Assembly (NCBI GenBank): GCA_035533875.1
Contig: DATLSZ010000020.1
Span: 14,146 to 78,145 of the forward strand
Origin: Candidatus Acidiferrales bacterium
GTDB lineage: Bacteria > Patescibacteriota > Microgenomatia > Levybacterales > UBA12049
DNA length: 64,000 bases
Direction of reading: 5' to 3'
The notes below the pieces were generated by a model that had not been told where the DNA came from, ran no database searches, and saw nothing but the letters and a program-made list of their open reading frames with translations. Shown in pieces: positions 6,418 to 63,145 of this stretch; the stretch's first letter is position 1, and every line of letters starts with the position of its first letter. The position numbers were made by a program, and so were the translations under genes.

Positions 6418-6421
6418 AATT

Positions 6422-6937
6422 TTATTTTCCTTTGCCTACTTTCACTTGTGCTGCCCGTAATAATTTATCATATAATAAAAATCCAATACGCAGCTCTTCA
6501 AGAACGCTTCCGTCTTCTCCAACGTCAGTAGCTATTGCTTCCATCAGATTGGGATCAAATTTCTTCCCAACCGTCTCAATTTTTGTCACCCCTTCTGCTT
6601 TCAGTACATCGAGGAATTGCTGAATACTGACTTCTACGTTCTTGTCTTGGGTATGCTGATAGGCCAATATCAGTGTATCCAAAACAGTCAATATTCGCAA
6701 GAGCAATTCTTTATTTGCCGACCTTATCCACTCACTCTTCTCATCCTGCACTCTTTTTTGTAAATTCTGGTAATCTGCCAAAGCTCTCTTGTATTTATTC
6801 TCAGCTTCCTCAATCTGCGCTTTTACTTCCTCAAGTTCATCGATAACTTCTTCACCTTCAGTTTCTTCTAAATATTCCACTTCCATTGCGTCCGTCGCAA
6901 TGTCTTCGTTTTTCTTTTTATCGTTATCATTATTCAT
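6422..6937 (-). CDS. grpE: Nucleotide exchange factor GrpE
   Basis: 171 aa. A coiled-coil N-terminus ([14 protein letters not shown]) and a C-terminal beta domain, positioned between hrcA and dnaK. Confidence 0.9.
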
Positions 6938-6972
6938 CTTTAATCTTCAATCCTAAATCTTAAATCTCGCTT
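6938..6972. repeat. Tandem heptamer array that fills the hrcA-grpE spacer
   Basis: CTTTAAT CTTCAAT CCTAAAT CTTAAAT CTCGCTT. It runs from the base after the grpE start codon to the hrcA stop. Confidence 0.8.
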
Positions 6973-7703
6973 TACCACCCCTTCGCGCTTGTCTTAATCA
7001 GATCCGCGAAGTAGCGGACTGTCGGGATGATTGATGTATAGTGCAGTCTAGCCGGTCCGAGTACACCGATCCTGCCATGAACATTCATCGGCGTTGCATA
7101 TTCGGTATAAATAAACCCATACGGACCCTTCAAGCTACCGCCAAGCTCATCTTCAATCAGCACATGGATATCCTCATCATCATTCGTGTTGGCAAAGATA
7201 CTTTCAAAACTTCCATATTCATCAAGCGCCTCAAGAAGCGTCTTGGTTACATCTATATCAAAGAACTCCGGCATCTCAAGAATATTTGCATATCCTGAGC
7301 AATAAATATCACCTTCACTCGTTACTGCGACAGCAAGTGTGTTGGTTTTCTCTGCGAGCGATCTTGTCGTTTCTTTGAGAAACCGCTGCATCCGTTCACG
7401 GTAATCCCAAACTTTTTCTTTCAACGCGACTTCTTCTACCGTTGAGAGTTCCTTTTCTTTCATCAACTCCCGAACGTAAAATTTCATCCCAGCCGCAGTC
7501 GGGATACGTCCTGCCGATGAATGCGGTTTTTTCAGGTATCCGTATTCCGAAAGCTTGACCATCTCATTGCGGATCGTCGCCGGACTTGCACTGAGATTAT
7601 GCTTTTTTTCAATTGTCTCGGATCCAACCGGTTCGGCTGTATCGATATACTCTTCGATAACGCTTCGAAGAATCTCGACTTGCCGCTGCGTTAAATTATG
7701 CAT
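6972..7703 (-). CDS. hrcA: Heat-inducible transcription repressor HrcA (short form, 243 aa)
   Basis: N-terminal winged-helix region LTQRQVEILRSVIEEYIDTAEPVGSETI...ATIRNEM..L...GYL. It is the first gene of the heat-shock operon, and a CIRCE-like site lies upstream. Confidence 0.85.
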   Translation of the reverse strand: MHNLTQRQVEILRSVIEEYIDTAEPVGSETIEKKHNLSASPATIRNEMVKLSEYGYLKKPHSSAGRIPTAAGMKFYVRELMKEKELSTVEEVALKEKVWDYRERMQRFLKETTRSLAEKTNTLAVAVTSEGDIYCSGYANILEMPEFFDIDVTKTLLEALDEYGSFESIFANTNDDEDIHVLIEDELGGSLKGPYGFIYTEYATPMNVHGRIGVLGPARLHYTSIIPTVRYFADLIKTSAKGW

Positions 7704-7710
7704 AATGAGT

Positions 7711-7759
7711 TAGTGAATAGTGACTAGTAATTAGTGATTAGTAAAATCTAAACCTAAAA
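7711..7759. repeat. Tandem heptamer array (TAGTRAN family) in the hrcA 5' region
   Basis: TAGTGAA TAGTGAC TAGTAAT TAGTGAT TAGTAAA ATCTAAA CCTAAAA. Confidence 0.8.
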
Positions 7760-7804
7760 ACTGCCCCCTAAACGCTAATTTCGTAATCCGCTGAGCAAAT
7801 CGGA

Positions 7805-7841
7805 TTAGCAATAATATAGCACGAGTGCCAACTCTTGTCAA
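7805..7841 (-). promoter_or_regulatory. Putative hrcA promoter overlapped by a degenerate CIRCE operator
   Basis: Minus strand: TTGACA (7841..7836), 17 nt, TATATT (7818..7813). Plus strand: TTAGCAATA-N9-GAGTGCCAA (7805..7831), compared with the CIRCE consensus TTAGCACTC-N9-GAGTGCTAA (7/9 and 8/9 matches). Confidence 0.55.
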
Positions 7842-7930
7842 TAACACAAAGTATCTCATACTATTTTGTCTTATGATCTGTCGGACACATCTTGTGTTTG
7901 TTTTTTGTTTATTAAATAATTGGAAGTAAG

Positions 7931-8659
7931 ATGAGTATTGCAAATATATTGGGTATCGTAGCAGCTGGTGGCGGCGGCATCCTAATCTTTTTCGGTTACC
8001 AAAAAACAAATGAATCCAATACCCTATCCAAGTATGTTCCCACGGATGATATAAATAGTATACCGTTTGGTGTCCCCGTTGTGATAAACGGAACGGTAAC
8101 TGCAGATCAACCATTGACGTCTCCGGTAACACAAAAATCATGTGTTTATTATGAATATATTTTGGAACGGGAAGAAGAAAGTAAAGACAGCAAAGGAAAT
8201 TCTACATGGACATGGAGAAGAATCGGTTCTCCTGAAAAACAATCCATTCCCTTTTATCTGCAAGCTCAGACGAGTAAAATTTTGATAAAACCTGCCGGCT
8301 GCGAAGTAAATGGCATCTACCAGACGCAACAATTTCTGCAACCCGGCACGATACAAAACACTAATTCAACAGGGATGAAGATACTCTCTTCTATTATCAA
8401 AATAGCCAATGCTACAGGGGGTAATAGAGAACGGGTAACCGAATATATGATAGCAACAGGATCCACGCTCAATGCCTTTGGTATCCTTACCATGGAAGGG
8501 GAGCAGAAATTTATTCAAAAAACGAATGAATATCCTTTGGTATTATCTCCTTTATCAAAAGATCAGCTGGTCGGTGCGGAAAAGAAAACAGCATATATAC
8601 TCTACGCTTTAACGCTGGGGCTACTAATCATCGGCCTTTTCCTTTTTCTTCGAGGATAA
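7931..8659 (+). CDS. Membrane protein with N- and C-terminal TM helices, possibly GIDE-domain-like
   Basis: 242 aa. N-terminal TM ILGIVAAGGGGILIFFG and C-terminal TM AYILYALTLGLLIIGLFLFL. The stretch PLTSPVTQKSCVYYEYILEREEE resembles the bacterial GIDE family pattern. The assignment is weak. Confidence 0.45.
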   Translation: MSIANILGIVAAGGGGILIFFGYQKTNESNTLSKYVPTDDINSIPFGVPVVINGTVTADQPLTSPVTQKSCVYYEYILEREEESKDSKGNSTWTWRRIGSPEKQSIPFYLQAQTSKILIKPAGCEVNGIYQTQQFLQPGTIQNTNSTGMKILSSIIKIANATGGNRERVTEYMIATGSTLNAFGILTMEGEQKFIQKTNEYPLVLSPLSKDQLVGAEKKTAYILYALTLGLLIIGLFLFLRG

Positions 8660-8737
8660 CCTCGCTACTTGATCAGATAATTAAGGAAATTTCGTAGACA
8701 TCTTGTATTTGTTATTATTTTTTGCCATGCTGAAGAT

Positions 8738-9715
8738 GTGAAAAAATTTCATTTTCTCTTTGCTTTTTTTCTAATTTTTATAGTAGTCACTTTTTCTACA
8801 TTATCTTTGGTGACAAAAACTGCTTATGCAAAGAGTTGTACGGCAAACGGGCATGAATGTACCGGTCAAACATATTGTAAAGATACAAAGAATGGAGGAG
8901 ATTGTTCTGCTTTTGTTGGTTTCGGAACTCCTCCAACTTGTGCCTGTGCACCAAAACAAACGACTGGCTCCTGCACGTCAGATAACCAATGTTCAACGAA
9001 CTATTGCACTAATAAAAACGGAGGAGGAGAATGCTCTAACAGCGGAGGCGCCTTGAATCCAACGTATAATTGTATCTGTGGACAAAAGCAAACAAAAGGA
9101 TCCTGTTCGACAGATGCGCAATGTTCAAACGGAACATATTGTGAAGACAATAAGGGTGGCGGATCATGTCCGCCATTTACCGGTTTTGGTACGCAACCCA
9201 GTTGCAGCTGTAAAGCAAAACAAACAAAAGGATCCTGTGCTGTAAACTCACAATGTGCTAACGGTTATTACTGTGGTGCGGCAGGTGGTGGAGAATGTCC
9301 ACCATTCACAGGCTTCAACAGTACTCAAACTATATGTGCATGTGTAAAAAACGGTACTAATTATAACTCTGCACCCACTCCGCTCCCTGGTCCCCCTTCT
9401 CCTCCGTGTCAAAATTGGAGTAATGGAGAGTGTTTGACCTTTACTTCTGCTTTTGGACCGATCGCAACCAATCCATCCGGATTTGTTAAAACAATTTTTG
9501 GTATTCTTCTTAGTATCTCCGGTGGCATTGCCCTGCTTCTTATTATTAAGGCAGGATACCAACTGATGACCTCTCAAGGCAAACCCGAGCAAATCCAGCA
9601 GGGTAGAGATCAACTGATTGCCGCTATCGTCGGGCTTATCTTCCTTATCTTCTCTTTTGTGTTCCTGCAATTAATCGGATTCGATATCCTGCATATTTAC
9701 GGATTTGGCGCATGA
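8738..9715 (+). CDS. Secreted cysteine-rich repeat protein fused to a C-terminal T4SS-pilin-like two-helix domain
   Basis: GTG start. Signal peptide ends ...TKTAYA/KSC. Four tandem ~44-aa, 6-Cys repeats (KQT[KT]GSC..[ND].QC....YC.....GG.C..F.GF......C.C). A Pro-rich linker PTPLPGPPSPPC precedes the pilin-like domain FGPIATNPSGFVKTIFGILLSISGGIALLLIIKAGYQLMTSQGKP... Confidence 0.8.
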   Translation: MKKFHFLFAFFLIFIVVTFSTLSLVTKTAYAKSCTANGHECTGQTYCKDTKNGGDCSAFVGFGTPPTCACAPKQTTGSCTSDNQCSTNYCTNKNGGGECSNSGGALNPTYNCICGQKQTKGSCSTDAQCSNGTYCEDNKGGGSCPPFTGFGTQPSCSCKAKQTKGSCAVNSQCANGYYCGAAGGGECPPFTGFNSTQTICACVKNGTNYNSAPTPLPGPPSPPCQNWSNGECLTFTSAFGPIATNPSGFVKTIFGILLSISGGIALLLIIKAGYQLMTSQGKPEQIQQGRDQLIAAIVGLIFLIFSFVFLQLIGFDILHIYGFGA

Positions 9716-9746
9716 GATCACGCAAACGACCACTTACACTGCTTAT
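9371..9746 (+). repeat. Copy 1 of a 376-bp direct duplication (3' end of the Cys-rich gene plus the first 35 nt of the downstream gene)
   Basis: Aligns colinearly with 10827..11202. The last 220 bp (9527..9746 vs 10983..11202) differ at only 2 positions by my count, while the first ~155 bp are clearly more diverged. Confidence 0.9.
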
Positions 9747-9792
9747 CGTTTCATTAAAAATAAAAACAGTTAAGCAGCTTTTATTATTTTAA
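9712..9792 (+). pseudogene. Truncated duplicate of the 5' end of the 11168..11551 gene
   Basis: ATGAGATCACGCAAACGACCACTTACACTGCTTAT is identical to the start of 11168..11551 (MRSRKRPLTLLI). It then diverges and stops after 26 codons. Confidence 0.6.
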
Positions 9793-9845
9793 TAAATAAG
9801 AAGTCATATATTGCATTTGCTCATTTTTTTTGCCATGCTAAATAT

Positions 9846-11171
9846 GTGAAAAAATATATAGTTTTTGCCGGCTCAACACTATTCTTCATTTTCTCATTTT
9901 TATCTCAGAACATACCTGTTTCATATGCCATCCCCGTACCTATCTGTAATCCTCCTCCAGGTACAACAAGAAATACGGCTGGCCTAGGGGAAAAATGTAA
10001 CTATCATAGTATTACTTGCAATTATCAAATAGAGTGTAGTGCAGGACTTACCTGTGATACTCATCTTTATCCAGATTCCCTCTGTGTCTCTACCAAAGCA
10101 AAAGCAGTAAATTGTTCATGCAATCACCCAGGTGCTGATGCGACAAAAACACCTGGTGTAAACAGATTTACCTGTAATGGTCAGCAATTCTATTGCAGTA
10201 CGTCAAACCTCTCTTGTTATGCCAGTAATAACAATATTGTTACCGCAAGCATTGTAGATAGTAAAGAACGTAGTAATTTTAATAATCAGTTTCCTCCACA
10301 ACAATATACCGTTAAAGGTGTTATCTGTAAACCATATCAACACAAAGCAATATGCTCATGTACAACGCCAAATAAAGCCGGAGGCGGGAACAATGAATTT
10401 AAGTGCAATGATACATCCGGAAAATCAATTGGTGTTGGATCTTGCGGAAGTGTTCATGACGCATGTTCGGATACTCCTGGTGTATCTATAGATGGCAACC
10501 TTATAAATCCTAATCCTAATCCTTCAGGCAATATCGGTACAGGATGGAACGTCACGGGTATCGCCTGCCATGGTCTCGTAGCGAAGTGTACCTGTACTCA
10601 TAACAACGGTTCCGGGAGCGGACAAAATGGATTTTCGTGTACAAATCCGGATACTAGTTCAAAATTAAAAACAGGAGGCGGCTATTGTAATGGGACGCAA
10701 TACGCATGTCAAAATGCTCCAGGCTTTTCTGTTGATACATCAACAACATCGAATTATTCAGGATTTTTAGCAGCTAATGGTGGCTATAGCATCGAAGGAA
10801 TTAAATGTACAGCATCGACACCTTCTGCACCCACACCGCTTCCTCCTCCACCGTCACCTCCGTGTCAAAATTGGAGTAACGGAGAGTGCACAACCTTTAC
10901 TTCTGCTTTTGGACCGATCGCAACCAATCCATCCGGATTTGTTAAATCAATTTTTGGTATTTTACTGAGTATTTCAGGAGGAATTGCCCTGCTTCTTATT
11001 ATTAAGGCAGGATACCAACTGATGACGTCTCAAGGCAAACCCGAGCAAATCCAGCAGGGTAGAGATCAACTGATTGCCGCTATCGTCGGGCTTATCTTCC
11101 TTATCTTCTCCTTTGTGTTCCTGCAATTAATCGGATTCGATATCCTGCATATTTACGGATTTGGCGCATGA
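9846..11171 (+). CDS. Secreted cysteine-rich protein fused to a C-terminal T4SS-pilin-like domain (paralog of 8738..9715)
   Basis: 441 aa with a GTG start and the signal peptide ...NIPVSYA/IP. The different Cys-rich ectodomain carries repeated C.C(T/N).P/H.N..G..N.F.C motifs. The same PPPSPPCQNWSNGEC linker is followed by a near-identical pilin-like C-terminus. Confidence 0.8.
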   Translation: MKKYIVFAGSTLFFIFSFLSQNIPVSYAIPVPICNPPPGTTRNTAGLGEKCNYHSITCNYQIECSAGLTCDTHLYPDSLCVSTKAKAVNCSCNHPGADATKTPGVNRFTCNGQQFYCSTSNLSCYASNNNIVTASIVDSKERSNFNNQFPPQQYTVKGVICKPYQHKAICSCTTPNKAGGGNNEFKCNDTSGKSIGVGSCGSVHDACSDTPGVSIDGNLINPNPNPSGNIGTGWNVTGIACHGLVAKCTCTHNNGSGSGQNGFSCTNPDTSSKLKTGGGYCNGTQYACQNAPGFSVDTSTTSNYSGFLAANGGYSIEGIKCTASTPSAPTPLPPPPSPPCQNWSNGECTTFTSAFGPIATNPSGFVKSIFGILLSISGGIALLLIIKAGYQLMTSQGKPEQIQQGRDQLIAAIVGLIFLIFSFVFLQLIGFDILHIYGFGA

Positions 11172-27349: not shown

Positions 27350-28678
27350 TTAAAACATATTCCCTTTGGGTATTATTTGTTTTTTTAAAAACTCTTTCGG
27401 ATGATCAGAGGGTCGAAGTAAAAAATATTTTCCATCATTAACCAATACTTCAGATGCCGTCTGCATACTTAAGAAATATGGCATCGCTTCACTCCAACCG
27501 TATGCGCCTGCGACAAAGATACCCATCAGATCTCCCCTCTGTGTTGATTTGGGTAATAAAACATCTTTACCCAAGATATCTATCGGCGTACACAAAGCAC
27601 CGCCGACAGTCATCTTCACGTCGTGTGCAGCATTTATTTTCGATATGTTATAAACAGGATGCGATCCATTCACAATACTCGGTCGCAAGAAATGATGAAT
27701 ACCTCCGTCAACAAGCACCATTTTTTCTCCATGAGAAACTTTTACATTGTCAACTTGTGAGATATAAATACCACTCTGCGCGACAAAATATCTCCCCGGC
27801 TCGACAGATAATGCAACGTTGTTATTTTTGATAAAGGGAAATTGTGCCAGTATCTCACCAAGATATTTTGCAATCTTATCAAGCTGCAGCGGTTCATCAT
27901 TTTCCGTATATGGGACAGCCAACCCGCCGCCAAAATCTATCGAGCGGATAGGAAAATAAGTATTGAGCTTTTGTGCAACTCGGCAGATATTTTTTATGTT
28001 CTCTAAAAAACCTTTTGTATTCAGCATATTTGCAGAATAGACATGTATTCCAAACAATTCCAGATGCGGAAGTTTCTGAATCTTTGTAATAAACGACCTG
28101 GTAATCTGTTCTTCATCGATTCCAAATTTTGATGCATCCCCTGCCATTACTTGATGCGCTGCATTTTCCACTGACCTGTTAATATTGACCCTGAGAGCAA
28201 CACGCTGTTTCATATTTTTTCTTTTGGCGATAGTATTAATTCTTTGTAATTCGTCTTCACTCTCTGCGTTGATGATATGAACTCCATAATCCAATGCATA
28301 CTCCAATGCTTCATCATTTTTTACCGGACCGGCAAATGAAATTCTTTTTGGATCTGCTCCAATTTTTTTAGCAATAACTAATTCTCCCAACGAAGCAACA
28401 TCCAAATCCGCACCGAGTTTGTATAATCCATCGACTAAAGCAAGTGCCGGATTTGGTTTGATCGCGTAATAAATCGAAATGCCAAGAGGTTTGAAAACTT
28501 GTTGTAAACTTATAAACTGTGCTCTAATTGTCGCTGCATCATAAACATAAAACGGCGGAGGAATATGCGCGGCGATTTTTTCGATTGAAACACCGCTCAT
28601 AGCGAATGTACTTTTTTCACCTTTTTTAATGACAGAAAAACTCGGACTGATCCAGCTTGCGTTATTTTTTAGCGCCAT
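27350..28678 (-). CDS. lysA: Diaminopimelate decarboxylase
   Basis: PFYVYD, YAIKPN (PLP lysine region) and GGGL are motifs of fold-type III decarboxylases. Confidence 0.88.
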   Translation of the reverse strand: MALKNNASWISPSFSVIKKGEKSTFAMSGVSIEKIAAHIPPPFYVYDAATIRAQFISLQQVFKPLGISIYYAIKPNPALALVDGLYKLGADLDVASLGELVIAKKIGADPKRISFAGPVKNDEALEYALDYGVHIINAESEDELQRINTIAKRKNMKQRVALRVNINRSVENAAHQVMAGDASKFGIDEEQITRSFITKIQKLPHLELFGIHVYSANMLNTKGFLENIKNICRVAQKLNTYFPIRSIDFGGGLAVPYTENDEPLQLDKIAKYLGEILAQFPFIKNNNVALSVEPGRYFVAQSGIYISQVDNVKVSHGEKMVLVDGGIHHFLRPSIVNGSHPVYNISKINAAHDVKMTVGGALCTPIDILGKDVLLPKSTQRGDLMGIFVAGAYGWSEAMPYFLSMQTASEVLVNDGKYFLLRPSDHPKEFLKKQIIPKGNMF

Positions 28679-29850
28679 GATGCAAATACTCCTTTCATTC
28701 GTTGTAATCCTTCTCTGATTTCTTCTTCCGATGCAGCATATGATAGACGGATGAAATTTTTTCCAGCTCTGCCAAAAGCGATTCCCGGAATAGTCACAAC
28801 GTTGACTGTTTCAATCAATTTTTTGGCAACAGTCATCCCGTCACCAAAGGCAGACACATCGACAAAATAATAAAATGCGCCGTGTGATACATGAAAATGC
28901 AGTCCGGAAATCTCCTGCAATAGTGAACCCATTAATTTTCTCCGTTTATCAAGGTGTTTATGATACAAGGCAAGTTCCTTGTCACATTCCCGTTTTAATA
29001 CAGGTAGTGCTGCATATTGCGAATCTATTGGCGCGCAGACATACGTTGCCTGCTGAGATTTCAAAGCGTCTGTGATAAAGAAATCAGGCCCGATAATCCA
29101 TCCAATCCGTTTGCCTGCCTGGCTCGCTTGTTTGGACAACCCATTCACCACAATCGTCCGTTCACTGAGTGATGAGATAGAATGATGCGTTGCTCCTTCA
29201 AAAAGACATGTTGCGTAAATTTCATCTGACAGGAAAAAGAGTGATAGATGATCAATTGTTCTTTTTACAATCTTCATCAATGCAGAAAGCGATACTACCT
29301 GTCCAGTTGGATTGGAAGGAGAATTGATCACAATGAGTTTGGTCCGGGCTGTTATTTTACTGAGAAGATCATCAACATCGATATCAAAATCTTCCATTAA
29401 TGCGTATTCTATGACATGCGCGCCCCATTTTTCCGGTAGTGTTTTATACAAGGGATACTGCAAAGCAGGAATGAGTACCTCATCACCTGGATTAAGCATC
29501 GTCTCAAAAGCGATATACAAACCGCCGGTCGAACCGGAAGTAATAATCACATTGTCCCGTGTTGTCTGGATATCAAACTGCTGTGAAAAACGATCGGCTA
29601 TTGCATCTCGAAGTTCCACAAGACCTGCATTTGGCGTATAATTTGTTTTCCCTTCATTGATGGCTTTTTGATTGGCAGCTCTGGCTTTTTTAGGCATTGG
29701 GAATTGTAACTCACCCAAACCCAAACTAACACGTGAGTATTCTCCTGTATGCTGGGTTTCTATAATTGACCGGATCAGAGACAATTCTGTTTGCGCGATA
29801 CGTTTGTTTGGGACATAATAATTTGTCAAATTTATAAGCTGTGTATTCAT
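28669..29850 (-). CDS. Class I/II PLP aminotransferase, probably the acyl-DAP aminotransferase step
   Basis: NYTPNAGL, LSDEIY and GLSKQASQAGKRIGW motifs. It lies between dapD and lysA. The substrate assignment is inferred from context only. Confidence 0.75.
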   Translation of the reverse strand: MNTQLINLTNYYVPNKRIAQTELSLIRSIIETQHTGEYSRVSLGLGELQFPMPKKARAANQKAINEGKTNYTPNAGLVELRDAIADRFSQQFDIQTTRDNVIITSGSTGGLYIAFETMLNPGDEVLIPALQYPLYKTLPEKWGAHVIEYALMEDFDIDVDDLLSKITARTKLIVINSPSNPTGQVVSLSALMKIVKRTIDHLSLFFLSDEIYATCLFEGATHHSISSLSERTIVVNGLSKQASQAGKRIGWIIGPDFFITDALKSQQATYVCAPIDSQYAALPVLKRECDKELALYHKHLDKRRKLMGSLLQEISGLHFHVSHGAFYYFVDVSAFGDGMTVAKKLIETVNVVTIPGIAFGRAGKNFIRLSYAASEEEIREGLQRMKGVFASWR

Positions 29851-30734
29851 CGTAATGCCTCCTCAAGAAGTGTTTTGAGATCAGTTCTTTTATCACGATA
29901 TTTAATGATAACCGGAACTTGTATCTGAATCCATTGTTCTAGTGCAAATTTATTATCATCTTTTGGACGTGTTCCGTTCACTACAATAGCTCCTTCCGGT
30001 ATTTCAAGTGGAGTAGCATCAGTCGCTTTATAGACTTTCTGTTTTATCAGATCATACACCGGCGTTGCCGATGTGATATTGACACCGGGGACAAGCAAAA
30101 CCCGTTTGCGAAGGATAACCCCTTCTGCGATGGAAGAATTAATACCCATGAGAACATCATCTTCAACAATACACGGACTCGCATTGACCGGCTCAAGGAC
30201 GCCGCCGATTTGCGCGCCGGCTGAGATATGACACCTATTACCAACCTGTGCACAGCTCCCAACTAATGAATGCGAGTCAAGCATTGTTCCTTCTCCGACA
30301 TATGCGCCGGTATTGATATATGCAGGAGGCATCATGATGACTCCTTTTCCGATAAAAGACCCATCCCTGATACTTGATCCACCAGGGACTATCCGAATAT
30401 TTTCAATTGTAAAATCAGTTGACCGTAATGGAAAAGTATCTTTATCGGCAAACTGAAGTGTCTCGGTTTTACCGGACATTCCGGTAATGACACCAAACCG
30501 CATACAGACCAAAATCCCTTCTTTCACCCAGGTATTCGTTATCCAAACACCCTTTGTATCTTTTTCGGCAGAGCGGATCGCACCGCTATTCAATGCGGAA
30601 ATAAACTGTTGTATGATGTCTCTTGCATTCACTGTTTTCCGTAATTTCGTAACGGATGAAATTTGGGCAAGCGTTATGATTTCTTTTTGTAATTGATTTT
30701 TAGACAAACTTTTTTTCATATTTATTGCTGGCAC
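29847..30734 (-). CDS. dapD: Tetrahydrodipicolinate N-acyl(succinyl)transferase
   Basis: Left-handed beta-helix hexapeptide region ...GAQIGGVLEPVNASPCIVEDDVLMGINSSIAEGV..., within the DAP gene context. Confidence 0.8.
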   Translation of the reverse strand: MPAINMKKSLSKNQLQKEIITLAQISSVTKLRKTVNARDIIQQFISALNSGAIRSAEKDTKGVWITNTWVKEGILVCMRFGVITGMSGKTETLQFADKDTFPLRSTDFTIENIRIVPGGSSIRDGSFIGKGVIMMPPAYINTGAYVGEGTMLDSHSLVGSCAQVGNRCHISAGAQIGGVLEPVNASPCIVEDDVLMGINSSIAEGVILRKRVLLVPGVNITSATPVYDLIKQKVYKATDATPLEIPEGAIVVNGTRPKDDNKFALEQWIQIQVPVIIKYRDKRTDLKTLLEEALR

Positions 30735-31780
30735 ACTAATTGAAATAGTGTTACTAATTTTTCCATATCAGCAAGTGCGATTGATTCATCACGTGTATGA
30801 GTATTTCGTGCACCGTCTCCGATATTAATTACTTGCAGTCCTTTTGTGTTAAAAATATTTGCATCCGATACGCTCCAGCTTTTTACCAACGTTGGTTGTA
30901 TATCCTGCTGCTGAAATACGTAAGAGATCTGTTGCACATATTGATCTTGTTTCTCAAAAAGATATGTCGGATTATCAACAGAATAATCAATATCCAACTG
31001 AACTGCGAATTTTCTTGCAGCAGTTTTAACTTTTTCAAAAAATAATTCCAGCTGTTTCTGCAGAACATTTTCATCAAAACTTCGTATCTCACCTCGGAGT
31101 GTTGCCGTTCCGGGGACTGCATTACGGACACTCCCGGCAGTAACGGTCCCGATATTTAAGATTGTTTGCTCATCAAGTTTGCCTGTGGTAACTTCCGAAA
31201 ATATGCTGCCAAGAACCGGGATGACGTTTGTCGCTTTTTCAGGAAATGCAGCATGTCCGCTTTTTCCGGTTATTACAATATCAAAACGCGCATATGCGGG
31301 AGAACCAATAACGATAGTGCCAACTGGAAGCGCGATATCAGCAACTAACCCTCTTTTTGCTGTTACTTTTGTGTAATCAAATGTTGCTGCACCCGGATCG
31401 GTTGACTCTTCACCGACAGTAAAGAGAATTTCAAGCGGTCTGTGTTTTTTTTCTTTCAATCGTTCAATAACTTCAAGAAGAACAGCAAGCGTAGATTTAT
31501 TATCAGCACCTAAAACTGTATCTCCATAAGCGGTAATGATGTCGTCTTTTACGACTGGAATAATATTTCGTCCCGGCTCAACCGTATCCATATGCGATGC
31601 AAGAAAAACCGGTTCACCAAAGCCATAAATTTTTGCAAAAACATTTCCGGTGTGATCTCTCTCAACAATGATATTTCGCTGCGTAAAATGATCAATAAGA
31701 AAATCCGCCACTGCCTGCTCATGTCCTGTCGGACTATCAATCGATACCAATTTTTTAAATGTAGTAAGTAATCTACTCAT
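30722..31780 (-). CDS. M20-family metallopeptidase, probably N-acyl-diaminopimelate deacylase (DapE-like)
   Basis: HMDTVEPG motif and the M20 layout. It is the first gene of the operon. I chose the ATG at 31780 (MSRLLTTFKKL) because the TTG-initiated extension to 31831 in the ORF track runs through the terminator hairpin. Confidence 0.75.
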   Translation of the reverse strand: MSRLLTTFKKLVSIDSPTGHEQAVADFLIDHFTQRNIIVERDHTGNVFAKIYGFGEPVFLASHMDTVEPGRNIIPVVKDDIITAYGDTVLGADNKSTLAVLLEVIERLKEKKHRPLEILFTVGEESTDPGAATFDYTKVTAKRGLVADIALPVGTIVIGSPAYARFDIVITGKSGHAAFPEKATNVIPVLGSIFSEVTTGKLDEQTILNIGTVTAGSVRNAVPGTATLRGEIRSFDENVLQKQLELFFEKVKTAARKFAVQLDIDYSVDNPTYLFEKQDQYVQQISYVFQQQDIQPTLVKSWSVSDANIFNTKGLQVINIGDGARNTHTRDESIALADMEKLVTLFQLVCQQ

Positions 31781-31793
31781 ATTTTTTCCCAAT

Positions 31794-31815
31794 AAAAAAC
31801 CCCTCGGGTGAGGGG
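31794..31815 (-). terminator. Intrinsic terminator / attenuator hairpin 14 nt upstream of the first DAP operon gene
   Basis: The minus strand reads CCCCTC-ACCC-GAGGGG-TTTTTT. It can also serve as the murB terminator. Confidence 0.7.
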
Positions 31816-31845
31816 TACTCTTTTTTAACAACGCAAAGAGATCCC

Positions 31846-31908: not shown

Positions 31909-31937
31909 ATTATAACTGAACTATGTGACGATTTCAA
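31909..31937 (-). promoter_or_regulatory. Sigma70-type promoter for the leader and DAP/lysine operon
   Basis: Minus strand: TTGAAA (31937..31932), 17 nt, TATAAT (31914..31909). It straddles the murB stop codon. Confidence 0.65.
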
Positions 31938-32883
31938 CCTCCACTTCAGGCGTGAAAGTGAAGGTCTCCTCGACCATTTCCTGGATGCGTTTGATAATTG
32001 TTAATACATCCTGCGATGTCGCGCCGCCTAAATTGTTAATGAAGTTGGTATGTTTTTCGGAAACACGTGCTTTTCCGATCGTATACCCGCTGAAACCAAG
32101 CCTGTTGATGATATATCCCATTGACACTTTGCCATGCCATTTTTCTTTTACCAAACTCCTAATATCCGGCCAGATGTCTACAACTTTTGCAACATCGTCA
32201 GATTTTTTAATGTTTTTGAATACCGACCCGCAGTTGGGATACTCCAGTGGATGATGTGTTTTGCGATAGTCGATATTGCCGGCATAGACACTCCTCGCTT
32301 TGACAAGCTCCTGCGTATCAGCAGGAGCTAGTTGAAATTGTGCTGCTGTGACTATCATATTCTTGTGTTCTTTCACGACACTGTGCCGGTAGGAAAAATG
32401 AAAATCTTCATTTTTCATCTCAAGGACATCAATATTTTTATCGTCAAACTCCAGCACTTCCGCTTGTACCAAACTGTCTTTTATCTCACCGCCGAATGCA
32501 CCGACATTCCCCCTTATCCCCGCGCCGACCGTCCCGGGCAATCCGCCGGCCCATTCAAGACCATGGAGTTTATGATTGAGTGATAATTGGATAAGCGTAT
32601 CAAGGGGCTCACCGGCAAAGGCCGTTGCTAACGTATCGGAAAAGCTGATCTGTGGCTTGGTACCGGAGCCAATTTGTATGACAACGCCGTCAAAAAAGTC
32701 ATCGGTGAAAATAAGATTAGATCCCTGACCGCAGACAAAAATCCGCTTGGGATGATGCTCTTCAACAAAATCAAGCGCTTTGAAAATATCTTTCCTGCCG
32801 GTGCAATGCAAAAAATATTGTGCCTTCCCTCCAATCCGGAACCATAATACCTGGGATAAATCAAAATCCTTATGAATTTGCAT
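31921..32883 (-). CDS. murB: UDP-N-acetylenolpyruvoylglucosamine reductase
   Basis: 320 aa. FRIGGKAQYF and an FAD-binding PCMH-type N-terminal domain with the MurB C-terminal domain. Confidence 0.88.
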   Translation of the reverse strand: MQIHKDFDLSQVLWFRIGGKAQYFLHCTGRKDIFKALDFVEEHHPKRIFVCGQGSNLIFTDDFFDGVVIQIGSGTKPQISFSDTLATAFAGEPLDTLIQLSLNHKLHGLEWAGGLPGTVGAGIRGNVGAFGGEIKDSLVQAEVLEFDDKNIDVLEMKNEDFHFSYRHSVVKEHKNMIVTAAQFQLAPADTQELVKARSVYAGNIDYRKTHHPLEYPNCGSVFKNIKKSDDVAKVVDIWPDIRSLVKEKWHGKVSMGYIINRLGFSGYTIGKARVSEKHTNFINNLGGATSQDVLTIIKRIQEMVEETFTFTPEVEVEIVT

Positions 32884-32998
32884 GGATGAAGTTTATTGTA
32901 AAGAATTTTGCAAAAAGAAGCAAACACGTAATAAATAACTGAAGACTTCTTTTCTCCATTGTTATCGTACTATGTTAAAGTTATAATTACACTGTATT

Positions 32999-33520
32999 AT
33001 GACCAAACAAGAAATTAGTGAGTTGGGGGAACAAATAGCTCAAAAATATAACCCACAGGGACTTTCTCCTTTTCCTTTTGAAAAAATTCAAGAAGCAAAT
33101 AACGATTTAAAAATTTATATAGCTACACTGGATGACCAAATTTCAGGAGCAATTGGTTTTAATGAAAATGTGTTTAATATATTTATCAATAACAACAAAC
33201 CCAAAACAAGGCAACATTTTACAACAGCTCATGAAGTAGGTCATTATTTTTTACATAAGGATATTATAAAAAAACAACAGGTACTTGTTGATAGTGACCA
33301 ATATCTTGATGGTAACAGCTTTTTATATAGACTTGATTCAGCAGAACCAACACAAATAGAAACAGAGGCAAATAATTTTGCTGCATCACTGATAATGCCT
33401 GAAGGTTTAGTAAGAAAAGCATGGGAATCAATAAAAAATATTGAAGAATGCGCCAAAATATTCAATGTATCCACGAGTGCTATGAGTGTACGATTAGAAA
33501 GATTAACATTAATCACGTAG
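32999..33520 (+). CDS. ImmA/IrrE-family (COG2856-like) zinc metallopeptidase domain protein
   Basis: 173 aa. TTAHEVGHYFLH supplies HExxH, and a downstream EANNFAASLIMPEG is typical of the family. There is no fused or adjacent HTH protein. Confidence 0.7.
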   Translation: MTKQEISELGEQIAQKYNPQGLSPFPFEKIQEANNDLKIYIATLDDQISGAIGFNENVFNIFINNNKPKTRQHFTTAHEVGHYFLHKDIIKKQQVLVDSDQYLDGNSFLYRLDSAEPTQIETEANNFAASLIMPEGLVRKAWESIKNIEECAKIFNVSTSAMSVRLERLTLIT

Positions 33521-33529
33521 CGGATTTAT

Positions 33530-33952
33530 ATGACAACTCGAGGCAGGAAAAAACGCAGCAAACTAAATAAAAAAGCTGCTACTTATGAAGAGCTTAAAGG
33601 AGAAATCCAAAAGCTTCTTACTTCTCAAGATCTTGGTGCACTCCCTAGCTATTCAACTTTTCAAACCAAACAGCTTGATATAAATGATGAGATTGCTAGA
33701 AGAGAGAATATTAAAAACAAAGATCTCGAACAAGATATCAGGCTTAAAAAAATGACACTGATTATTTTGTTTATTTTTCTTGGAGTTGAAACTACGATTA
33801 TTTTCGCTTTTTCTTTATTACAAGCAACTTCTCTTTTCGGATTTAAATTAGAAGAATGGAGTTTCAAACTATTAGTTACTGCAACATTGATACAAATTGC
33901 GTTTATGCTTCAAGTTGCAGTAAAATACCTTTTTCGAGACAAAAAAACATAG
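33530..33952 (+). CDS. Hypothetical protein with a basic N-terminus, a coiled-coil-like middle and two C-terminal TM helices
   Basis: 140 aa. MTTRGRKKRSKLNKK..., then LIILFIFLGVETTIIFAFSLL and LLVTATLIQIAFMLQVAV. It starts 9 nt downstream of the ImmA-like gene. Confidence 0.55.
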   Translation: MTTRGRKKRSKLNKKAATYEELKGEIQKLLTSQDLGALPSYSTFQTKQLDINDEIARRENIKNKDLEQDIRLKKMTLIILFIFLGVETTIIFAFSLLQATSLFGFKLEEWSFKLLVTATLIQIAFMLQVAVKYLFRDKKT

Positions 33953-33966
33953 AGGTTATGCAGCAG

Positions 33967-35721
33967 TTAATAATCCTCAAGTGTTGAGGTATCACCAATG
34001 GGGAGACCAAGTTCTTTTGCTTTCAGAATTCTCCGCATAATTTTGCCCGAGCGGGTCTTGGGTAATTTGTCGATAAACTCGATTTCTCGCGGATACGCGT
34101 GACCTGCCAGATGCTTTTTAACATGCTGCTGGAGTTTTTCTTTCAGCTCATCTGTCTGTTTGACTCCTGGTTTCACCACAACAAATGCTTTTATGATTTC
34201 TCCTCTGACCATATCCGGCTTACCGATAACACCGGCTTCAATAACATCCGGATATTCCACAAGCGCGCTTTCAACTTCGAAAGGTCCGACACGTTCACCG
34301 GAGGTATTGATAACATCATCAGCCCGACCGATGAACCAATAATACCCGTCTTTATCCCGCATTGCCCGGTCACCCGAGATGTACCATTTGCCGATAAAGT
34401 AGGAAGTAAACTTCTCTTCATTCTTCCAAATTGTCTTCATCAGTGATGAAACCGATGATGCAAGCAGTGCCAAATTCCCCTCGTGCTCATCTCCCAATTC
34501 GCGTCCTTTATCATCGACAATCGCCGCGACAATACCAGGCAACGGCTTGCCCATAGAACCTGGTTTGATATCCATCACGGCATAATTGGGAATGGTGATA
34601 GCACCTTGTTCTGTCTGCCACCATGTATCATGGAAGGGTAACCCAAACTTCTCAAGTGCCCACCAAATTGCTTCAGGATTCAGCGGTTCACCGACACTTG
34701 CTAGGAACCGCAGATGAGACAGATCATATTCTTTTGGTGCAATAGGTGACCCCATGAGAAGACGAATCGCAGTCGGCGCGGAATACCAGACCGTTACTTT
34801 GTAATCCTGAAGAATTGTATACCAGTTCTCCGGACTGAATCGTCCTTCAAACAAGACTTGTGTTATCCCGAGCCCCCATGGTCCAAGTGCAGCGTAAACA
34901 ACTCCGGTAACCCAGCCAAGATCCGCAGTACACCAATAGATATCATCATCATGCAAGTCCAATACATATTTTGTTGTCACCATGGCCTGCAGGATATCAC
35001 CATGCATATGCATAACACCCTTTGGCTTGCCGGTCGTTCCTGATGTATATAGCATATAGGAATAATCATCCTTCTTCATGTGAGCAATCTTGAACGTGTC
35101 GGATGCTTGCTTCATTTCTTTTTCGTAATAGACAATTCCTTTGCCTTTGGGCTGTTCAATTGATCCGCGTTCGACAATAATTACCTTTTCTAACTTGGGA
35201 AGATCTTTACGGATTGTCTTGATACGGGGATAGAGAACAGCATTGGTAATAACCATATTTGCCTCGCTGTCTGCCAGCCGATCGCGAAGTGCTATCTCCT
35301 GAAAAGCGGCAAACAGGGTCCCGGCAACTGCTCCGACTTTGAGAATCCCCAAAAAAGCAATATATCGCTCGGGAACTCCCGGAAGAAAAATGAACACACG
35401 GTCGCCTTTTTTTACACCTTGAGATGAGAGAACATTGGCAAATTTATCACTCAGAGTTTTTAGCTCACTGAACGTATAGGATTCTTTTTCTCCCCGTACT
35501 CCTTCAAAGAGCAAAGCGGTTTTATTCTTATTTTTTCCGGTAGCATGGCGGTCGATCATGTTGTGGGCGACATTGAGTTTGCCGTCAGAAAAGAATTCAA
35601 CCATTTCTTTTTCGGCTTTTTCCCACGAGAATTCTTTGTAGATTTTATCGTAATCCAAGAGGTTGGGAGGAGGCGTTAATTTCTTTACATTTTTTCTTAT
35701 TAATTTGACCTGATCACTCAT
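33967..35721 (-). CDS. acs: AMP-forming acetyl/acyl-CoA synthetase
   Basis: YTSGTTGKPKGV (AMP-binding motif) and a C-terminal ...LPKTRSGKIMRR. I prefer the ATG at 35721 (MSDQVKL) to the start at 35745. Confidence 0.85.
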   Translation of the reverse strand: MSDQVKLIRKNVKKLTPPPNLLDYDKIYKEFSWEKAEKEMVEFFSDGKLNVAHNMIDRHATGKNKNKTALLFEGVRGEKESYTFSELKTLSDKFANVLSSQGVKKGDRVFIFLPGVPERYIAFLGILKVGAVAGTLFAAFQEIALRDRLADSEANMVITNAVLYPRIKTIRKDLPKLEKVIIVERGSIEQPKGKGIVYYEKEMKQASDTFKIAHMKKDDYSYMLYTSGTTGKPKGVMHMHGDILQAMVTTKYVLDLHDDDIYWCTADLGWVTGVVYAALGPWGLGITQVLFEGRFSPENWYTILQDYKVTVWYSAPTAIRLLMGSPIAPKEYDLSHLRFLASVGEPLNPEAIWWALEKFGLPFHDTWWQTEQGAITIPNYAVMDIKPGSMGKPLPGIVAAIVDDKGRELGDEHEGNLALLASSVSSLMKTIWKNEEKFTSYFIGKWYISGDRAMRDKDGYYWFIGRADDVINTSGERVGPFEVESALVEYPDVIEAGVIGKPDMVRGEIIKAFVVVKPGVKQTDELKEKLQQHVKKHLAGHAYPREIEFIDKLPKTRSGKIMRRILKAKELGLPIGDTSTLEDY

Positions 35722-35773
35722 AACTGAACAAGTAGATCTTACCATTAGAACGCCCAGTTTGCAAGAGAATAGA

Positions 35774-36501: not shown

Positions 36502-39285
36502 TTAGTTCTCAATCTTCTTATATGCTTCGAGTATACAGAAATTGGCAACGAGGGTGAGGCCATAGTCTTCGGCGAAATCCTCTGCTTCTCTGCTTTGAAC
36601 TCCTTCTGCTAGCCAGACGGTATTGATCCCGCCTCTCTCAACAACTTCTGCCATGTGTCCAACCACTTGTGATTTCTCGCGAAAAATATCAACAATATCA
36701 ATCCTGATGTCTTTGGGAATATCCGAAAGACTGGCATAGGATTTCTCACCTAGTACTTCTTTCACATTGGGATTAACAGGAATGATCCGGTAGCCTTTTT
36801 CCTGGAATGTTTTTGCAACACGGTGACTGTGACGCTCCGGATTGTCCGAAAGGCCTATGAAAGCAATCGTCCGGGCATTTTTAAGAAGATCCATGTGCTT
36901 GATCTCAAACGCAGTTGTTGCTTTGGGTAATTTGCCTGCCCATTGCCAATTTTCAATTTCAGCCGGTTCAGCACCAACCGTGGTAATATAGTCATAATGC
37001 TCTTTCAACGCTTTTTTATAGATGTCTATCAATGCTTCTTTCTTCTCCTGCGTAATTACTCCCTCTTTGCTCACCCTTTCTGCGACTTCGATTGCCAGAT
37101 GATAGCGATCTGTTTTGTTTCTTACTAACAAATCAAAGGCCGTGGTTGTTCCTCCCCATTCGTTATAACCATGGACAGAAAATCGATCCGGATTTTTAAC
37201 CTTGAATAAAATACTTTGCATTGCCTCAGGATACCCATGAAAATTGACAATTACCGGCTTATCTATAGTAAAGTATTTCTCCGCATCCTGAATTTGCGGA
37301 TGGAATGCTTCTTCACAGGAGCAAGCAGCCTGCAACCGCAAAATATTAACAAAACGAATACGAATCTCAGGAGCATCCTGTTTGATAAGCTCAATAGCAG
37401 CAAGTGCCTCTCTCGTCATGTAATCTCCGACACCAACAAGCACAATATGTGGATTCTCATCACTCGCAAAATCCCACGTGGACAACCCTGTCTTGAGTGC
37501 CTCTTTTACGTACTCATATGTCAGCCAGCGGGGTTCAGGAGTCTTATTTGCAGTAATGAGATTCATTTGATTTTTGGAAGCAAACGACTCTTGCAGAACC
37601 GCGAGCATACTATTATCATCCACCGGGAAATAGGTCTTGATAAAATCATTGTGTTTCTCAAGCATTCCTGAGATGAATCCTGGATTTTGATGAGAGTACC
37701 CATCACGTTCCTGTCTCCAGACAGTGGAAGTCAACAAATAATTTACTGAAGGAATATCTTTCCGCCATGGCATACGTAGCCAATACTTCAGAAACTTCTG
37801 GTGCATATGTGCCATACTTGCGATAATCTGTGCAAATGCCTCATAGGTAGTGAATGCAACATGTCTTCCGGTCAATACATATCCGGAAGTTAGCCCTTGC
37901 ATATTGTGTTCAGAAAGCATTTCCATAACTTTTCCATCGCGGGTAATATCGCGGTCCCCCGGATCATGAGGCCACACCCAGCCACGACCTGTCACTTCAA
38001 AAACAGCATCAAGTCTGTTGGAATACGTTTCATCCGGTGACATCAAACGGATGTTATTTGTTTTCTTATTTAACGCAAAAACTTCTTTCAAAAAGGTTCC
38101 GGCCATACGCATCGCATTCGATTGTATTTCACCCGGCTTGCGGACCTCTTTTGCCAATTTTTTACTATCCGGCAATACCAATGGCTTGTATGTCTTACCA
38201 AAAACATGCGGATTATTACTGATAAGAAACTCTTCGTCTGGGATAAGATCCAAAATGTCTTTTGAAAATCCTTTTTTCTTATCGAAAAGTTCTTCAAAAT
38301 GATATGACTTCATCCAGTCTTCAAGGGCTTTCAGTTCCATGTCGTCATTGCGCACTGTTGGCATAACCACTTGATGGGAAAGAATGGTGCCTTCAATTTT
38401 TTGCCCGCGTAATTCCTTGATTGTTGTCATTCCTTTTGGTGTTCGCATGACTATCATCGGAAAACGAGGCCGAAAAGGAGGACTATCTCCTCGTGCTTCT
38501 TCTTGGATTTTTTTAATCCGCTGATAGCAGGTTTCAAGAGTTGTGAACATTTGCTCGTCAAGATCCTCATCCGCGCCTTCGACAAAAAAGGGCTCATATC
38601 CATACCCGCTGAATAATTCTTCCATTTCGCGATTACTCATGCGACCAAAAATTGTAGGCCCTGAAATTTTGTATCCATTCACGTGAAGAATCGGAAGCAC
38701 TGCACCATTGGTTGCGGGATCAACAAGTTTGTTAATATGCCATGCAGCTGCAATAGCTCCTGTTTCTGCTTCTCCGTCACCAATCAGACAGGCAGCGAGC
38801 AAATCCGGATTGTCCAGAATTGCTCCATAGGCAAGTCCCAATGAATAGCCTAGTTCTCCACCTTCCAAGATCGCACCCGGTATTTCAGGGCTGACATGAC
38901 TGGAAAAACCATGAGGCCAGGTATAATTTTTTGCAATATAGGCAATTCCTTTTTCGTCTCTAGTTGCTTTCTTATAATATTTTTCAAGCGTTCCTTCCAA
39001 AAAAACATTTGCTTGCAGAGCTGACATACCGTGCCCTGGCCCGAGAACAAAAATAGCAGATTGCTTATGCTTTTTAACAAGATAATTAAGGTGCGCATAA
39101 ACAAAATTGATCCCCGGACATGTTCCCCAGTGCCCCACAAGTTTGGGCTTAATATCATCTGATTTGAGTGGTCTTTGCAGAAGATAATTATCCTGAAGAT
39201 AAATTTGTGCGACAGAAAGATAATTGGCCGCCCGCACATACTTTCTTATTTTTTCAATAGCAGCATCCATTGCAGTACTTTGCAT
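36502..39285 (-). CDS. xfp: Phosphoketolase (Xfp) fused to a C-terminal CoA-binding domain
   Basis: IYLQDNYLLQRPL..DIKPKLVGHWGTCPGINF and GPGHG are XFP N-terminal signatures. The extra ~130 aa, ARTIAFIGLSDNPERHSHRVAKTFQEKGYRIIPVNPNVKEVLGEKSYASLSDIP..IDIVDIFR, are typical of the CoA_binding_2 (YccU-like) family. Confidence 0.85.
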   Translation of the reverse strand: MQSTAMDAAIEKIRKYVRAANYLSVAQIYLQDNYLLQRPLKSDDIKPKLVGHWGTCPGINFVYAHLNYLVKKHKQSAIFVLGPGHGMSALQANVFLEGTLEKYYKKATRDEKGIAYIAKNYTWPHGFSSHVSPEIPGAILEGGELGYSLGLAYGAILDNPDLLAACLIGDGEAETGAIAAAWHINKLVDPATNGAVLPILHVNGYKISGPTIFGRMSNREMEELFSGYGYEPFFVEGADEDLDEQMFTTLETCYQRIKKIQEEARGDSPPFRPRFPMIVMRTPKGMTTIKELRGQKIEGTILSHQVVMPTVRNDDMELKALEDWMKSYHFEELFDKKKGFSKDILDLIPDEEFLISNNPHVFGKTYKPLVLPDSKKLAKEVRKPGEIQSNAMRMAGTFLKEVFALNKKTNNIRLMSPDETYSNRLDAVFEVTGRGWVWPHDPGDRDITRDGKVMEMLSEHNMQGLTSGYVLTGRHVAFTTYEAFAQIIASMAHMHQKFLKYWLRMPWRKDIPSVNYLLTSTVWRQERDGYSHQNPGFISGMLEKHNDFIKTYFPVDDNSMLAVLQESFASKNQMNLITANKTPEPRWLTYEYVKEALKTGLSTWDFASDENPHIVLVGVGDYMTREALAAIELIKQDAPEIRIRFVNILRLQAACSCEEAFHPQIQDAEKYFTIDKPVIVNFHGYPEAMQSILFKVKNPDRFSVHGYNEWGGTTTAFDLLVRNKTDRYHLAIEVAERVSKEGVITQEKKEALIDIYKKALKEHYDYITTVGAEPAEIENWQWAGKLPKATTAFEIKHMDLLKNARTIAFIGLSDNPERHSHRVAKTFQEKGYRIIPVNPNVKEVLGEKSYASLSDIPKDIRIDIVDIFREKSQVVGHMAEVVERGGINTVWLAEGVQSREAEDFAEDYGLTLVANFCILEAYKKIEN

Positions 39286-63127: not shown

Positions 63128-63145
63128 CACAAAAAGATATATTTG

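Follow-up and report, generated by a model that had tools for sequence, protein, structure and literature searches.

Here we describe our characterisation of a two-gene cassette, designated A-B, located in a 64,000-nucleotide (nt) stretch of contig DATLSZ010000020.1 (the window), and propose that it is, with reasonable probability as judged from its sequence, an accessory RosmerTA-type cassette for toxin-antitoxin function or abortive infection, of the short form found in Gordonia phage Kita. The proposal is based on the domain identities of the two proteins, the structure of the operon, the conservation and co-divergence of the pair, its accessory status, and homology to the Kita system that is strong for A and remote for B. 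The kind of system is already known and has been experimentally tested in Kita, and A-B is not a new kind; what is new is an unannotated and sizeable family of putative toxins, remotely linked to the Kita toxin RmrT-D5, whose homologues predominantly carry Patescibacteria labels. The pairing of such a protease with a small membrane protein, pointed out in an earlier note on this DNA, is not without precedent: the same architecture had already been characterised experimentally in the RosmerTA operon of Kita (PMC10440598). The two genes are:

32999 to 33520, plus strand: gene A, 173 amino acids (aa), a standalone M78 (ImmA/IrrE-type) zinc metallopeptidase; putative antitoxin (RmrA-like, short form).
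33530 to 33952, plus strand: gene B, 140 aa, a small membrane protein; putative depolarising or pore-forming toxin (remotely RmrT-D5-like).

The genes are co-oriented and separated by 9 nt, and both are real genes, with homologues of each present in databases.

In Rosmer systems, the ImmA protease serves as a hub antitoxin domain with a wide variety of toxin partners (Ernits et al. 2023, PMC10440598). The Kita antitoxin RmrA-D25 (YP_009301393) consists of a Peptidase_M78 domain only, and its partner RmrT-D5 (YP_009301394) is a toxin of unknown family, the C-terminal part of which is located in the membrane (PMC10440598). Full-length RmrT-D5 alone is toxic and causes rapid depolarisation and permeabilisation of E. 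coli membranes, RmrA neutralises it in part, and the operon protects against phages Bas54 and Bas59; the commoner gene order places the antitoxin first (PMC10440598). In the Kita phage record, gp32 (178 aa, without a helix-turn-helix (HTH) domain) is followed by gp33 (119 aa) with a 4-nt overlap. The window pair (173 and 140 aa) shares with this operon a protease that comes first and lacks an HTH, an intergenic distance near zero, and a second protein with a disordered N-terminus and a C-terminal membrane domain. It differs from Kita in that any relationship between B and RmrT-D5 is very distant, and in that the pair is found in Patescibacteria and other bacteria, on chromosomes outside prophages.

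Canonical RosmerTA consists of a Zn-peptidase antitoxin together with a toxin whose function is not known, and a deletion of its rmrA was unobtainable (Millman et al. 2022, 10.1101/2022.05.11.491447). A is likewise a Zn-peptidase beside a putative toxin of unknown fold. Canonical RmrA proteins have 357-400 aa, with an N-terminal region (often an HTH) ahead of the peptidase, whereas A and Kita RmrA do not have this region; since it is also missing from Kita RmrA, it is not required in the short form. The earlier note had called the missing repressor unusual, which is correct for ImmA/ImmR-type pairs and incorrect for Rosmer-type pairs.

Protein A matched Peptidase_M78 (Pfam PF06114) at E 6e-19, in agreement with its earlier assignment to the ImmA/COG2856-type proteases. 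The motif HEVGHYFLH occupies residues 78-86, from nt 33230, and EANNFAASLIMP residues 123-134. The conserved sites are:

33230 to 33244, plus strand: HEVGH zinc-binding/catalytic motif (H78, E79, H82), invariant in 27 of 27 aligned family members.
33359 to 33400, plus strand: ETEANNFAASLIMP motif (E121 to P134), from the alignment of 27 family members.

Invariant positions within the second motif among these 27 members are E121, A124, N125, F127, A129, L131, M133 and P134. In alignments with IrrE and CapP, E121 falls on their IE, and by analogy with IrrE it may be the third zinc ligand. Mean column identity over the A family is 55%. The database contains 295 homologues of A, the best 120 of which, as listed, are 53-100% identical to it.

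Comparison with Kita RmrA gave an hhalign probability of 99.1% (E 7e-19, 36% identity), and a tblastn search with A as query reached Kita RmrA at E 4e-7. With the same profile and the same database size, Kita RmrA scored 67.7 bits, compared with 34.9 for CapP and 29 for IrrE, that is, about half the score. Among PADLOC models, A matched capP first (3e-30, positions 3-152 of 242 in the model) and then RmrA (up to 4e-13, about positions 176-294 of the profiles, which is the peptidase part only). The capP top match is generic, because Kita RmrA gives the same pattern of capP first and RmrA after it. Assignment of A as capP was rejected on this ground and for the lack of CapH or CBASS genes nearby; a CBASS operon, a CapH HTH gene, an integrase or a regulated element was not found in the window flanks. 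CapP chains moreover have 278-291 aa with a C-terminal domain, and within PDB 7t5t A aligns to nothing beyond the peptidase part. The PADLOC profile PD-Lambda-2_B was also weakly matched by the M78 domains of A and its relatives.

The AlphaFold2 model of A (predicted local distance difference test score, pLDDT, 88.8) matched IrrE/PprI and CapP in Foldseek searches with E-values of 5e-6 to 5e-5 (IrrE 5e-6, CapP 1e-5) and TM-scores of 0.58-0.66, and covers only the peptidase part of their 240-291-aa chains. A has in common with ImmA/ImmR of ICEBs1, IrrE/DdrO of Deinococcus and CapP/CapH of CBASS the M78 peptidase fold and catalytic motif, and the A-B pair can be likened to them in its logic, in which a protease has the neighbouring gene's product as its target. 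Its partner is a membrane protein with two transmembrane (TM) helices, whereas that of the three known proteases is an Xre-type repressor, and A is without the C-terminal, GAF-like sensor part of IrrE and CapP. No HTH domain was matched in A by Pfam, NCBIfam and PADLOC scans, no HTH protein was found among the ten flanking genes scanned, as the earlier note had stated, and no Xre-type HTH repressor was found in those genes, in B, or near homologous pairs.

Protein B has the 140 residues, the basic N-terminus (MTTRGRKKRSKLNKK) and the two C-terminal TM helices described earlier. Its AlphaFold2 model (pLDDT 72 overall, about 90 over the hairpin) consists of a disordered N-terminus, a long helix at residues 51-100 and a helix at 109-134, forming a two-helix hairpin in which the juxtamembrane helix continues as TM1 and a short loop connects TM1 to TM2. 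Because both termini are basic, the protein is predicted to adopt an N-in/C-in topology with both ends cytoplasmic. The segments are:

33680 to 33751, plus strand: juxtamembrane helix, residues 51-74, with N63, Q68, D69, L72 and K73 invariant or nearly so; within the AlphaFold2 helix 51-100.
33752 to 33820, plus strand: TM helix 1, about residues 75-97, with invariant E87 and T88 in mid-helix.
33857 to 33928, plus strand: TM helix 2, about residues 110-133, with invariant W110, S111, T119 and Q122.

Residues 51-74 would be cytoplasmic and are a candidate region for contact with, or cleavage by, the protease. The invariant polar residues within the helices are E87, T88, Q98, T119 and Q122, and a conserved LF(P/R) motif follows TM helix 2. 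In relatives of B, for which TM helices were called with a simple hydrophobicity window, a variable and mostly disordered N-terminal region of 50-60 residues precedes a strongly conserved 80-residue module, with the consensus IKNxxLEQDIxLKKxTLxxLFIFLGxETxxIFxFAxLQATxxxGFxLEEWSFKLLVxATIxQITxMLQVAVKHLFPxK.

No curated family was matched above threshold by B and 29 relatives in Pfam, NCBIfam or PADLOC, and only weak matches to the function-unknown phrog_5346 and phrog_35754 were obtained. A word-indexed search returned 38 homologues of B, and an exhaustive profile search 395 clusters at 50% identity (E ≤ 0.001); the 150 members listed have 72-219 aa and no domain fusions. When PDB and BFVD were searched with the B model in Foldseek, nothing matched at E ≤ 0.001, and such a fold search is little suited to B, since a two-helix hairpin is too simple.

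A remote match between B and the Kita toxin was obtained with a widened B profile, which matched Kita RmrT together with two database relatives at an hhalign probability of 76% (E 2.2e-5); the RmrT profile is thin, as a homologue search with Kita RmrT returned only three sequences. The match spans the whole 2TM domain in 78 collinear columns, which begin at the juxtamembrane helix and end at the C-terminal LF motif. Its score of 35.0 was not reached by any of 100 within-domain column shuffles (mean 10.8, standard deviation 2.1, maximum 19.0), and the reversed alignment scored 10.3; hmmsearch gave 21.7, 18.7 and 8.3 bits in the comparison of B with RmrT-D5. From these profile scores, remote homology of B to Kita RmrT is probable, which falls short of proof. 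Neither Kita RmrT nor B was matched by any PADLOC model.

B is by profile comparison clearly homologous to CST123 of Clostridium phage c-st (hhalign 93.7%, E 2e-7), which is encoded directly downstream of the M78 protease CST124; the A profile scored 81 bits against the latter. CST123 defines phrog_35754, a family matched by 12 of 29 B-family members. The CST124/CST123 pair and those of Clostridium saudiense, C. paraputrificum and Bacillus paralicheniformis are homologous to A-B and in the same gene order, with identities to the window proteins of 32-38% for A and 12-19% for B.

A and B have their database matches on the same contigs. In 33 fetched loci, a B-like gene was found immediately downstream of an A-like gene, and in nearly all of these the gap or overlap is -8 to +11 nt. 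Loci were retrieved by pattern, and E-values of local searches refer to small databases. In species-representative genomes (L007-L018, A identity 42-60%; labelled Saccharimonadales, Paceibacterota, Liptonbacteria, Vogelbacteria, Gribaldobacteria and others), every close A homologue was directly followed by a B gene, with E-values of 1e-20 to 1e-48. With an iterated B profile, the next gene downstream was also recognised as B-like for more distant A homologues, in Clostridia, Clostridium saudiense, C. paraputrificum, Bacillus paralicheniformis, metagenome-assembled genomes (MAGs) labelled Rickettsiales, Arenicella and Solibacteraceae, and phage c-st. Over 30 modules, the pairwise identities of A and of B were correlated with r = 0.91, showing that the two genes co-diverge. 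Still more distant homologues of A have unrelated downstream partners, many of them soluble and of 270-400 aa, as RosmerTA likewise combines one antitoxin family with many unrelated toxins.

The pair occurs mostly in Patescibacteria, and also in Clostridia, Bacillus, some Proteobacteria and phage c-st. Organism names are the labels of MAG records; proteins identical to the window A and B are labelled 'Candidatus Acidoferrales', two relatives are labelled Gammaproteobacteria and Nevskiaceae, and most labelled near homologues of both proteins carry Patescibacteria labels.

Short M78 proteases with other partners were also observed in Mycobacterium phage Che9c (L092, 1506-3171; followed by a 129-aa protein with one C-terminal hydrophobic helix, and adjoined by a HicAB pair), in Clostridioides phage phiC2 (L093, 2297-4380; followed by a 528-aa protein) and in a Helicobacter prophage (L094, 2417-3374; followed by a 147-aa membrane protein). 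The partners of the Che9c and Helicobacter-prophage proteases showed no detectable likeness to B, and the three loci fit partner swapping around one protease family.

The cassette lies between two minus-strand genes, and open reading frame (ORF) coordinates and the Pfam domains of these flanks agree with the layout that had been proposed earlier:

31921 to 32883, minus strand: murB, with the domains FAD_binding_4 and MurB_C.
33967 to 35745, minus strand: acs, an AMP-forming acyl/acetyl-CoA synthetase.
About 32926 to 33966, no strand assigned: inserted accessory segment of about 1.04 kb comprising the whole cassette, between the murB start and the acs stop, from alignment with five relatives.

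At least 80 metagenomic loci with close acs homologues were fetched. The cassette is missing from L095, L096 and L098 (acs 84-91% and murB 82-85% identical), and from L101 and L105, in which the acs stop and the murB start are separated by 42-45 nt. Homology between the window and these empty sites is lost after ...AAGAAGCAAA (about 32924/5) and found again from the stop codon of acs, 33967. The A-B cassette is accessory, since the closest relatives of the window have a clean 42-45 nt junction in its place, and for the same reason B is not a housekeeping protein. Another locus, L004, carries the cassette at the identical insertion point, with identities to the window proteins of 78% for A, 68% for B, 78% for acs and 72% for murB. 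Target duplications, terminal repeats and integrase or recombinase genes were not found at the ends of the segment, which carries only the two genes.

Comparison of window positions 32884-33966 with L095-L106 and L139 shows that the stretch between acs and murB varies in this lineage, and other cargo at this position includes a 123-aa ORF in L102 and L103, two ORFs of 263 and 264 aa in L100, a 62-aa hydrophobic ORF with a 140-aa ORF in L104, and a 705-aa polytopic membrane protein in L139. Elsewhere, the pair is found in unrelated surroundings, such as after dnaJ, after an ABC-2 transporter, beside Band_7 and beside a PALP enzyme. The GC content of the cassette is 31-33%, compared with 38-48% in the flanking genes. 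HTH and integrase genes were not found near homologous pairs in the neighbourhoods examined. The earlier suggestion of a self-contained toxin-like or abortive-infection-like module is supported and was not refuted by the checks proposed along with it: the pair is conserved as neighbours in 33 loci, and B is not a housekeeping protein, as the closest relatives are cassette-free.

A TATAAT box of its own, 11 nt before the ATG, had been noted for the cassette and is present:

32959 to 32987, plus strand: sigma-70-like promoter, TTGTTA-17 nt-TATAAT, 10 of 12 consensus positions matched.

The -10 box (32982-32987) ends 11 nt ahead of the A start, upstream of which a Shine-Dalgarno sequence is not seen. 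By itself, the promoter scan was no better than chance in this AT-rich stretch (5 sites, 6.0 expected). However, a TAnAAT box is located 6-12 nt before the A start, as in the window, in 10 of 17 related loci examined (L001, L004, L009, L010, L012-L016 and L088, all without a Shine-Dalgarno sequence; in L004, TATAAT lies 9 nt upstream). As the box recurs at this distance, the A-B mRNA is probably leaderless or near-leaderless in the window, its start being placed from the box, and the recurrence suggests a leaderless transcript across the A-B family.

The toxicity of B, its neutralisation by A and the mode of this neutralisation, the trigger and a role in defence are drawn from the analogy with characterised systems. 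B would insert into the cytoplasmic membrane as an N-in/C-in two-helix hairpin, probably oligomerise through E87, T88, Q98, T119 and Q122, and then depolarise or permeabilise the membrane. A would be a cytoplasmic zinc metallopeptidase, translated first from the same, probably leaderless, transcript, and would keep B harmless, most likely by acting on its cytoplasmic N-terminal or juxtamembrane part. If A were inhibited, titrated or not replenished, for example upon phage infection, B would act and growth would stop or the cell would die, by which phage spread would be limited or the locus stabilised. A functional analogue of B is the toxin of the PanA/PanT-D11 system of Bartonella choladocola, which is small, with an unstructured N-terminus and a short helix before its TM region (PMC10440598). 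PanT-D11 depolarises membranes, and the antitoxin contacts its cytoplasmic part (PMC10440598). The PanA antitoxin is a Panacea (DUF4065) domain and not a protease, and the likeness proposed to B is one of function.

The invariance of the catalytic residues of A makes proteolysis plausible and suggests that cleavage, rather than mere binding, matters, for which residues 51-74 of B are the obvious candidate site. In its strongest form, A would be an enzymatic antitoxin that neutralises B by continuous, site-specific cleavage of its juxtamembrane segment and not by binding, phages would trigger the system by blocking A, and the cassette would be among the main abortive-infection devices of the genome-reduced Patescibacteria; taken together, this is unlikely. 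A literature search on M78/ImmA proteins in Patescibacteria and on a proteolytic mechanism of antitoxins returned nothing specific.

Several results weigh against a Rosmer-type defence cassette. The link between B and Kita RmrT is seen only after the profile has been widened iteratively with a few sequences selected by context, the B alignment compared with the single Kita RmrT sequence was not significant (E 0.38), and the two do not meet in PHROG families, Kita RmrT falling into phrog_13343 and phrog_26171 and B into phrog_5346 and phrog_35754. For the Kita pair, in which the way RmrA neutralises RmrT is not established either, no complex could be modelled (pDockQ 0.05, PMC10440598). A tblastn search of B against GenBank phages and PLSDB plasmids gave no match, and when viral contigs of IMG/VR were scanned for the pattern of the B alignment, no relative was confirmed. 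Most neighbourhoods of the pair consist of housekeeping genes and not of defence islands, and in Saccharimonadales-type loci the position after the ABC-2 transporter is stable, which fits long vertical retention. In favour of a defence role, a recognised defence system was found within about 5 kb in 3 of 17 Patescibacteria-type loci (a complete PD-Lambda-2 in L012, a type I restriction-modification system in L087, and one type II restriction-modification system), a count that has no control frequency beside it and from which enrichment cannot be read.

In the Paceibacterota MAG locus L012, the PD-Lambda-2 system is located at 5708-8350 on the minus strand, about 0.7 kb downstream of the A-B pair, and matched the PADLOC B model at 5e-138 and the C model at 5e-40; an A-model match of 4e-38 comes from a summary scan and has no position assigned to it. 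In L009, L010, L011, L014 and L088, the pair directly follows an ABC_tran and ABC2_membrane transporter pair on the same strand. This adjacency was established gene by gene for L088 only, and for the other loci from gene sizes and positions together with Pfam counts of 7 and 6 among 139 neighbours; it is probably synteny by descent.

The opposite polarity, which the earlier note had suggested, is the main alternative and in our judgement decidedly unlikely. Here A would be a site-specific protease, activated by a signal as ImmA, IrrE and CapP are upon DNA damage, and would remove the variable cytoplasmic N-terminal region of B and thereby unleash a 2TM pore. M78 relatives do cut the product of a neighbouring gene upon a stress signal (ImmA/ImmR, IrrE/DdrO, CapP/CapH), the disordered and variable 50-60 residues before the conserved helix of B have the layout of a removable inhibitory segment, and the catalytic residues of A are invariant. 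Such activation would, however, run against the Kita precedent, in which the protease is the antitoxin: it partially neutralises the toxin, and full-length toxin alone is toxic (PMC10440598). The unobtainable rmrA deletion of canonical RosmerTA (10.1101/2022.05.11.491447) also argues against it, as does A itself, which with its 173 aa is without the GAF-like C-terminal sensor of the 240-291-aa IrrE and CapP.

If the module is the same and its role is addiction or stress-induced growth arrest, the cassette would be a selfish pair kept because its loss kills the cell. Tight linkage and co-divergence of A and B, the mostly housekeeping surroundings, the stable position in Saccharimonadales-type loci and the single position kept by window and L004, at a divergence of A and B like that of the flanks, are all compatible with such a role. 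It is nonetheless very unlikely in view of the Rosmer systems tested so far, which protect against phages, of the temperate phages Kita and c-st, which carry homologous pairs in moron-like positions, and of the known defence systems that adjoin 3 of the 17 loci; the clean loss in close relatives shows that addiction, if there is any, is incomplete.

Phage lysogeny modules commonly contain M78 proteases (phrog_87), and small membrane exclusion proteins are often found beside them in Firmicutes phages, so that the cassette might be a prophage lysogeny remnant, in which A would be an orphan anti-repressor and B a membrane protein of superinfection exclusion, keeping phage DNA out without death of the cell. 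This is highly improbable, as no integrase, repressor or other phage gene was found near the pair in the window or in Patescibacteria-type loci, A and B co-diverge as a unit over 30 modules, and an orphan anti-repressor would not hold invariant catalytic residues across hundreds of lineages. A housekeeping pair, made up of a membrane protein of core physiology and its processing protease, would suit the 55% mean column identity of A, the nearly invariant membrane domain of B and the frequency of the pair in genome-reduced Patescibacteria, but is barely credible and was rejected in view of the empty sites, which contradict it: the closest relatives (acs 84-91% identical) lack the pair and have either a clean junction or different cargo in its place. 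The genomic position of the pair also differs across lineages, its GC content is below that of the flanks, and phages carry homologous pairs.

The reading as a short-form RosmerTA cassette bears on annotation, as the HTH-less form is without a model in PADLOC 2.0, Pfam or NCBIfam, and its proteases are called 'capP' first. The B family, with about 400 clusters at 50% identity, provides a profile for annotating such cassettes, and this profile shows that the cassette is common in Patescibacteria, the small genomes of which are thought to carry few defence systems. With its many natural variants, the family could also serve to study the way in which an M78 protease neutralises a membrane toxin.

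Other features were observed in the window. A 927-aa phosphoketolase (XFP_N/XFP/XFP_C) with a C-terminal CoA_binding_2 domain is encoded at 36502-39285 on the minus strand, and also in L004 at 8240-10993. It lies two genes from the acyl-CoA synthetase gene in the window, with a HAD hydrolase gene between them, and directly adjacent to it in L004; this unusual fusion might couple the formation of acetyl-phosphate to CoA chemistry. The region 27350-31831 (minus strand) has the appearance of a lysine-biosynthesis-type cluster, with an Orn/DAP decarboxylase, an aminotransferase, a DapD-like tetrahydrodipicolinate N-succinyltransferase and an M20 DapE-like peptidase. A tRNA-Pro (GGG) gene at 63057-63128 on the plus strand is the sole RNA gene that Rfam or ARAGORN identified in the 64-kb window.

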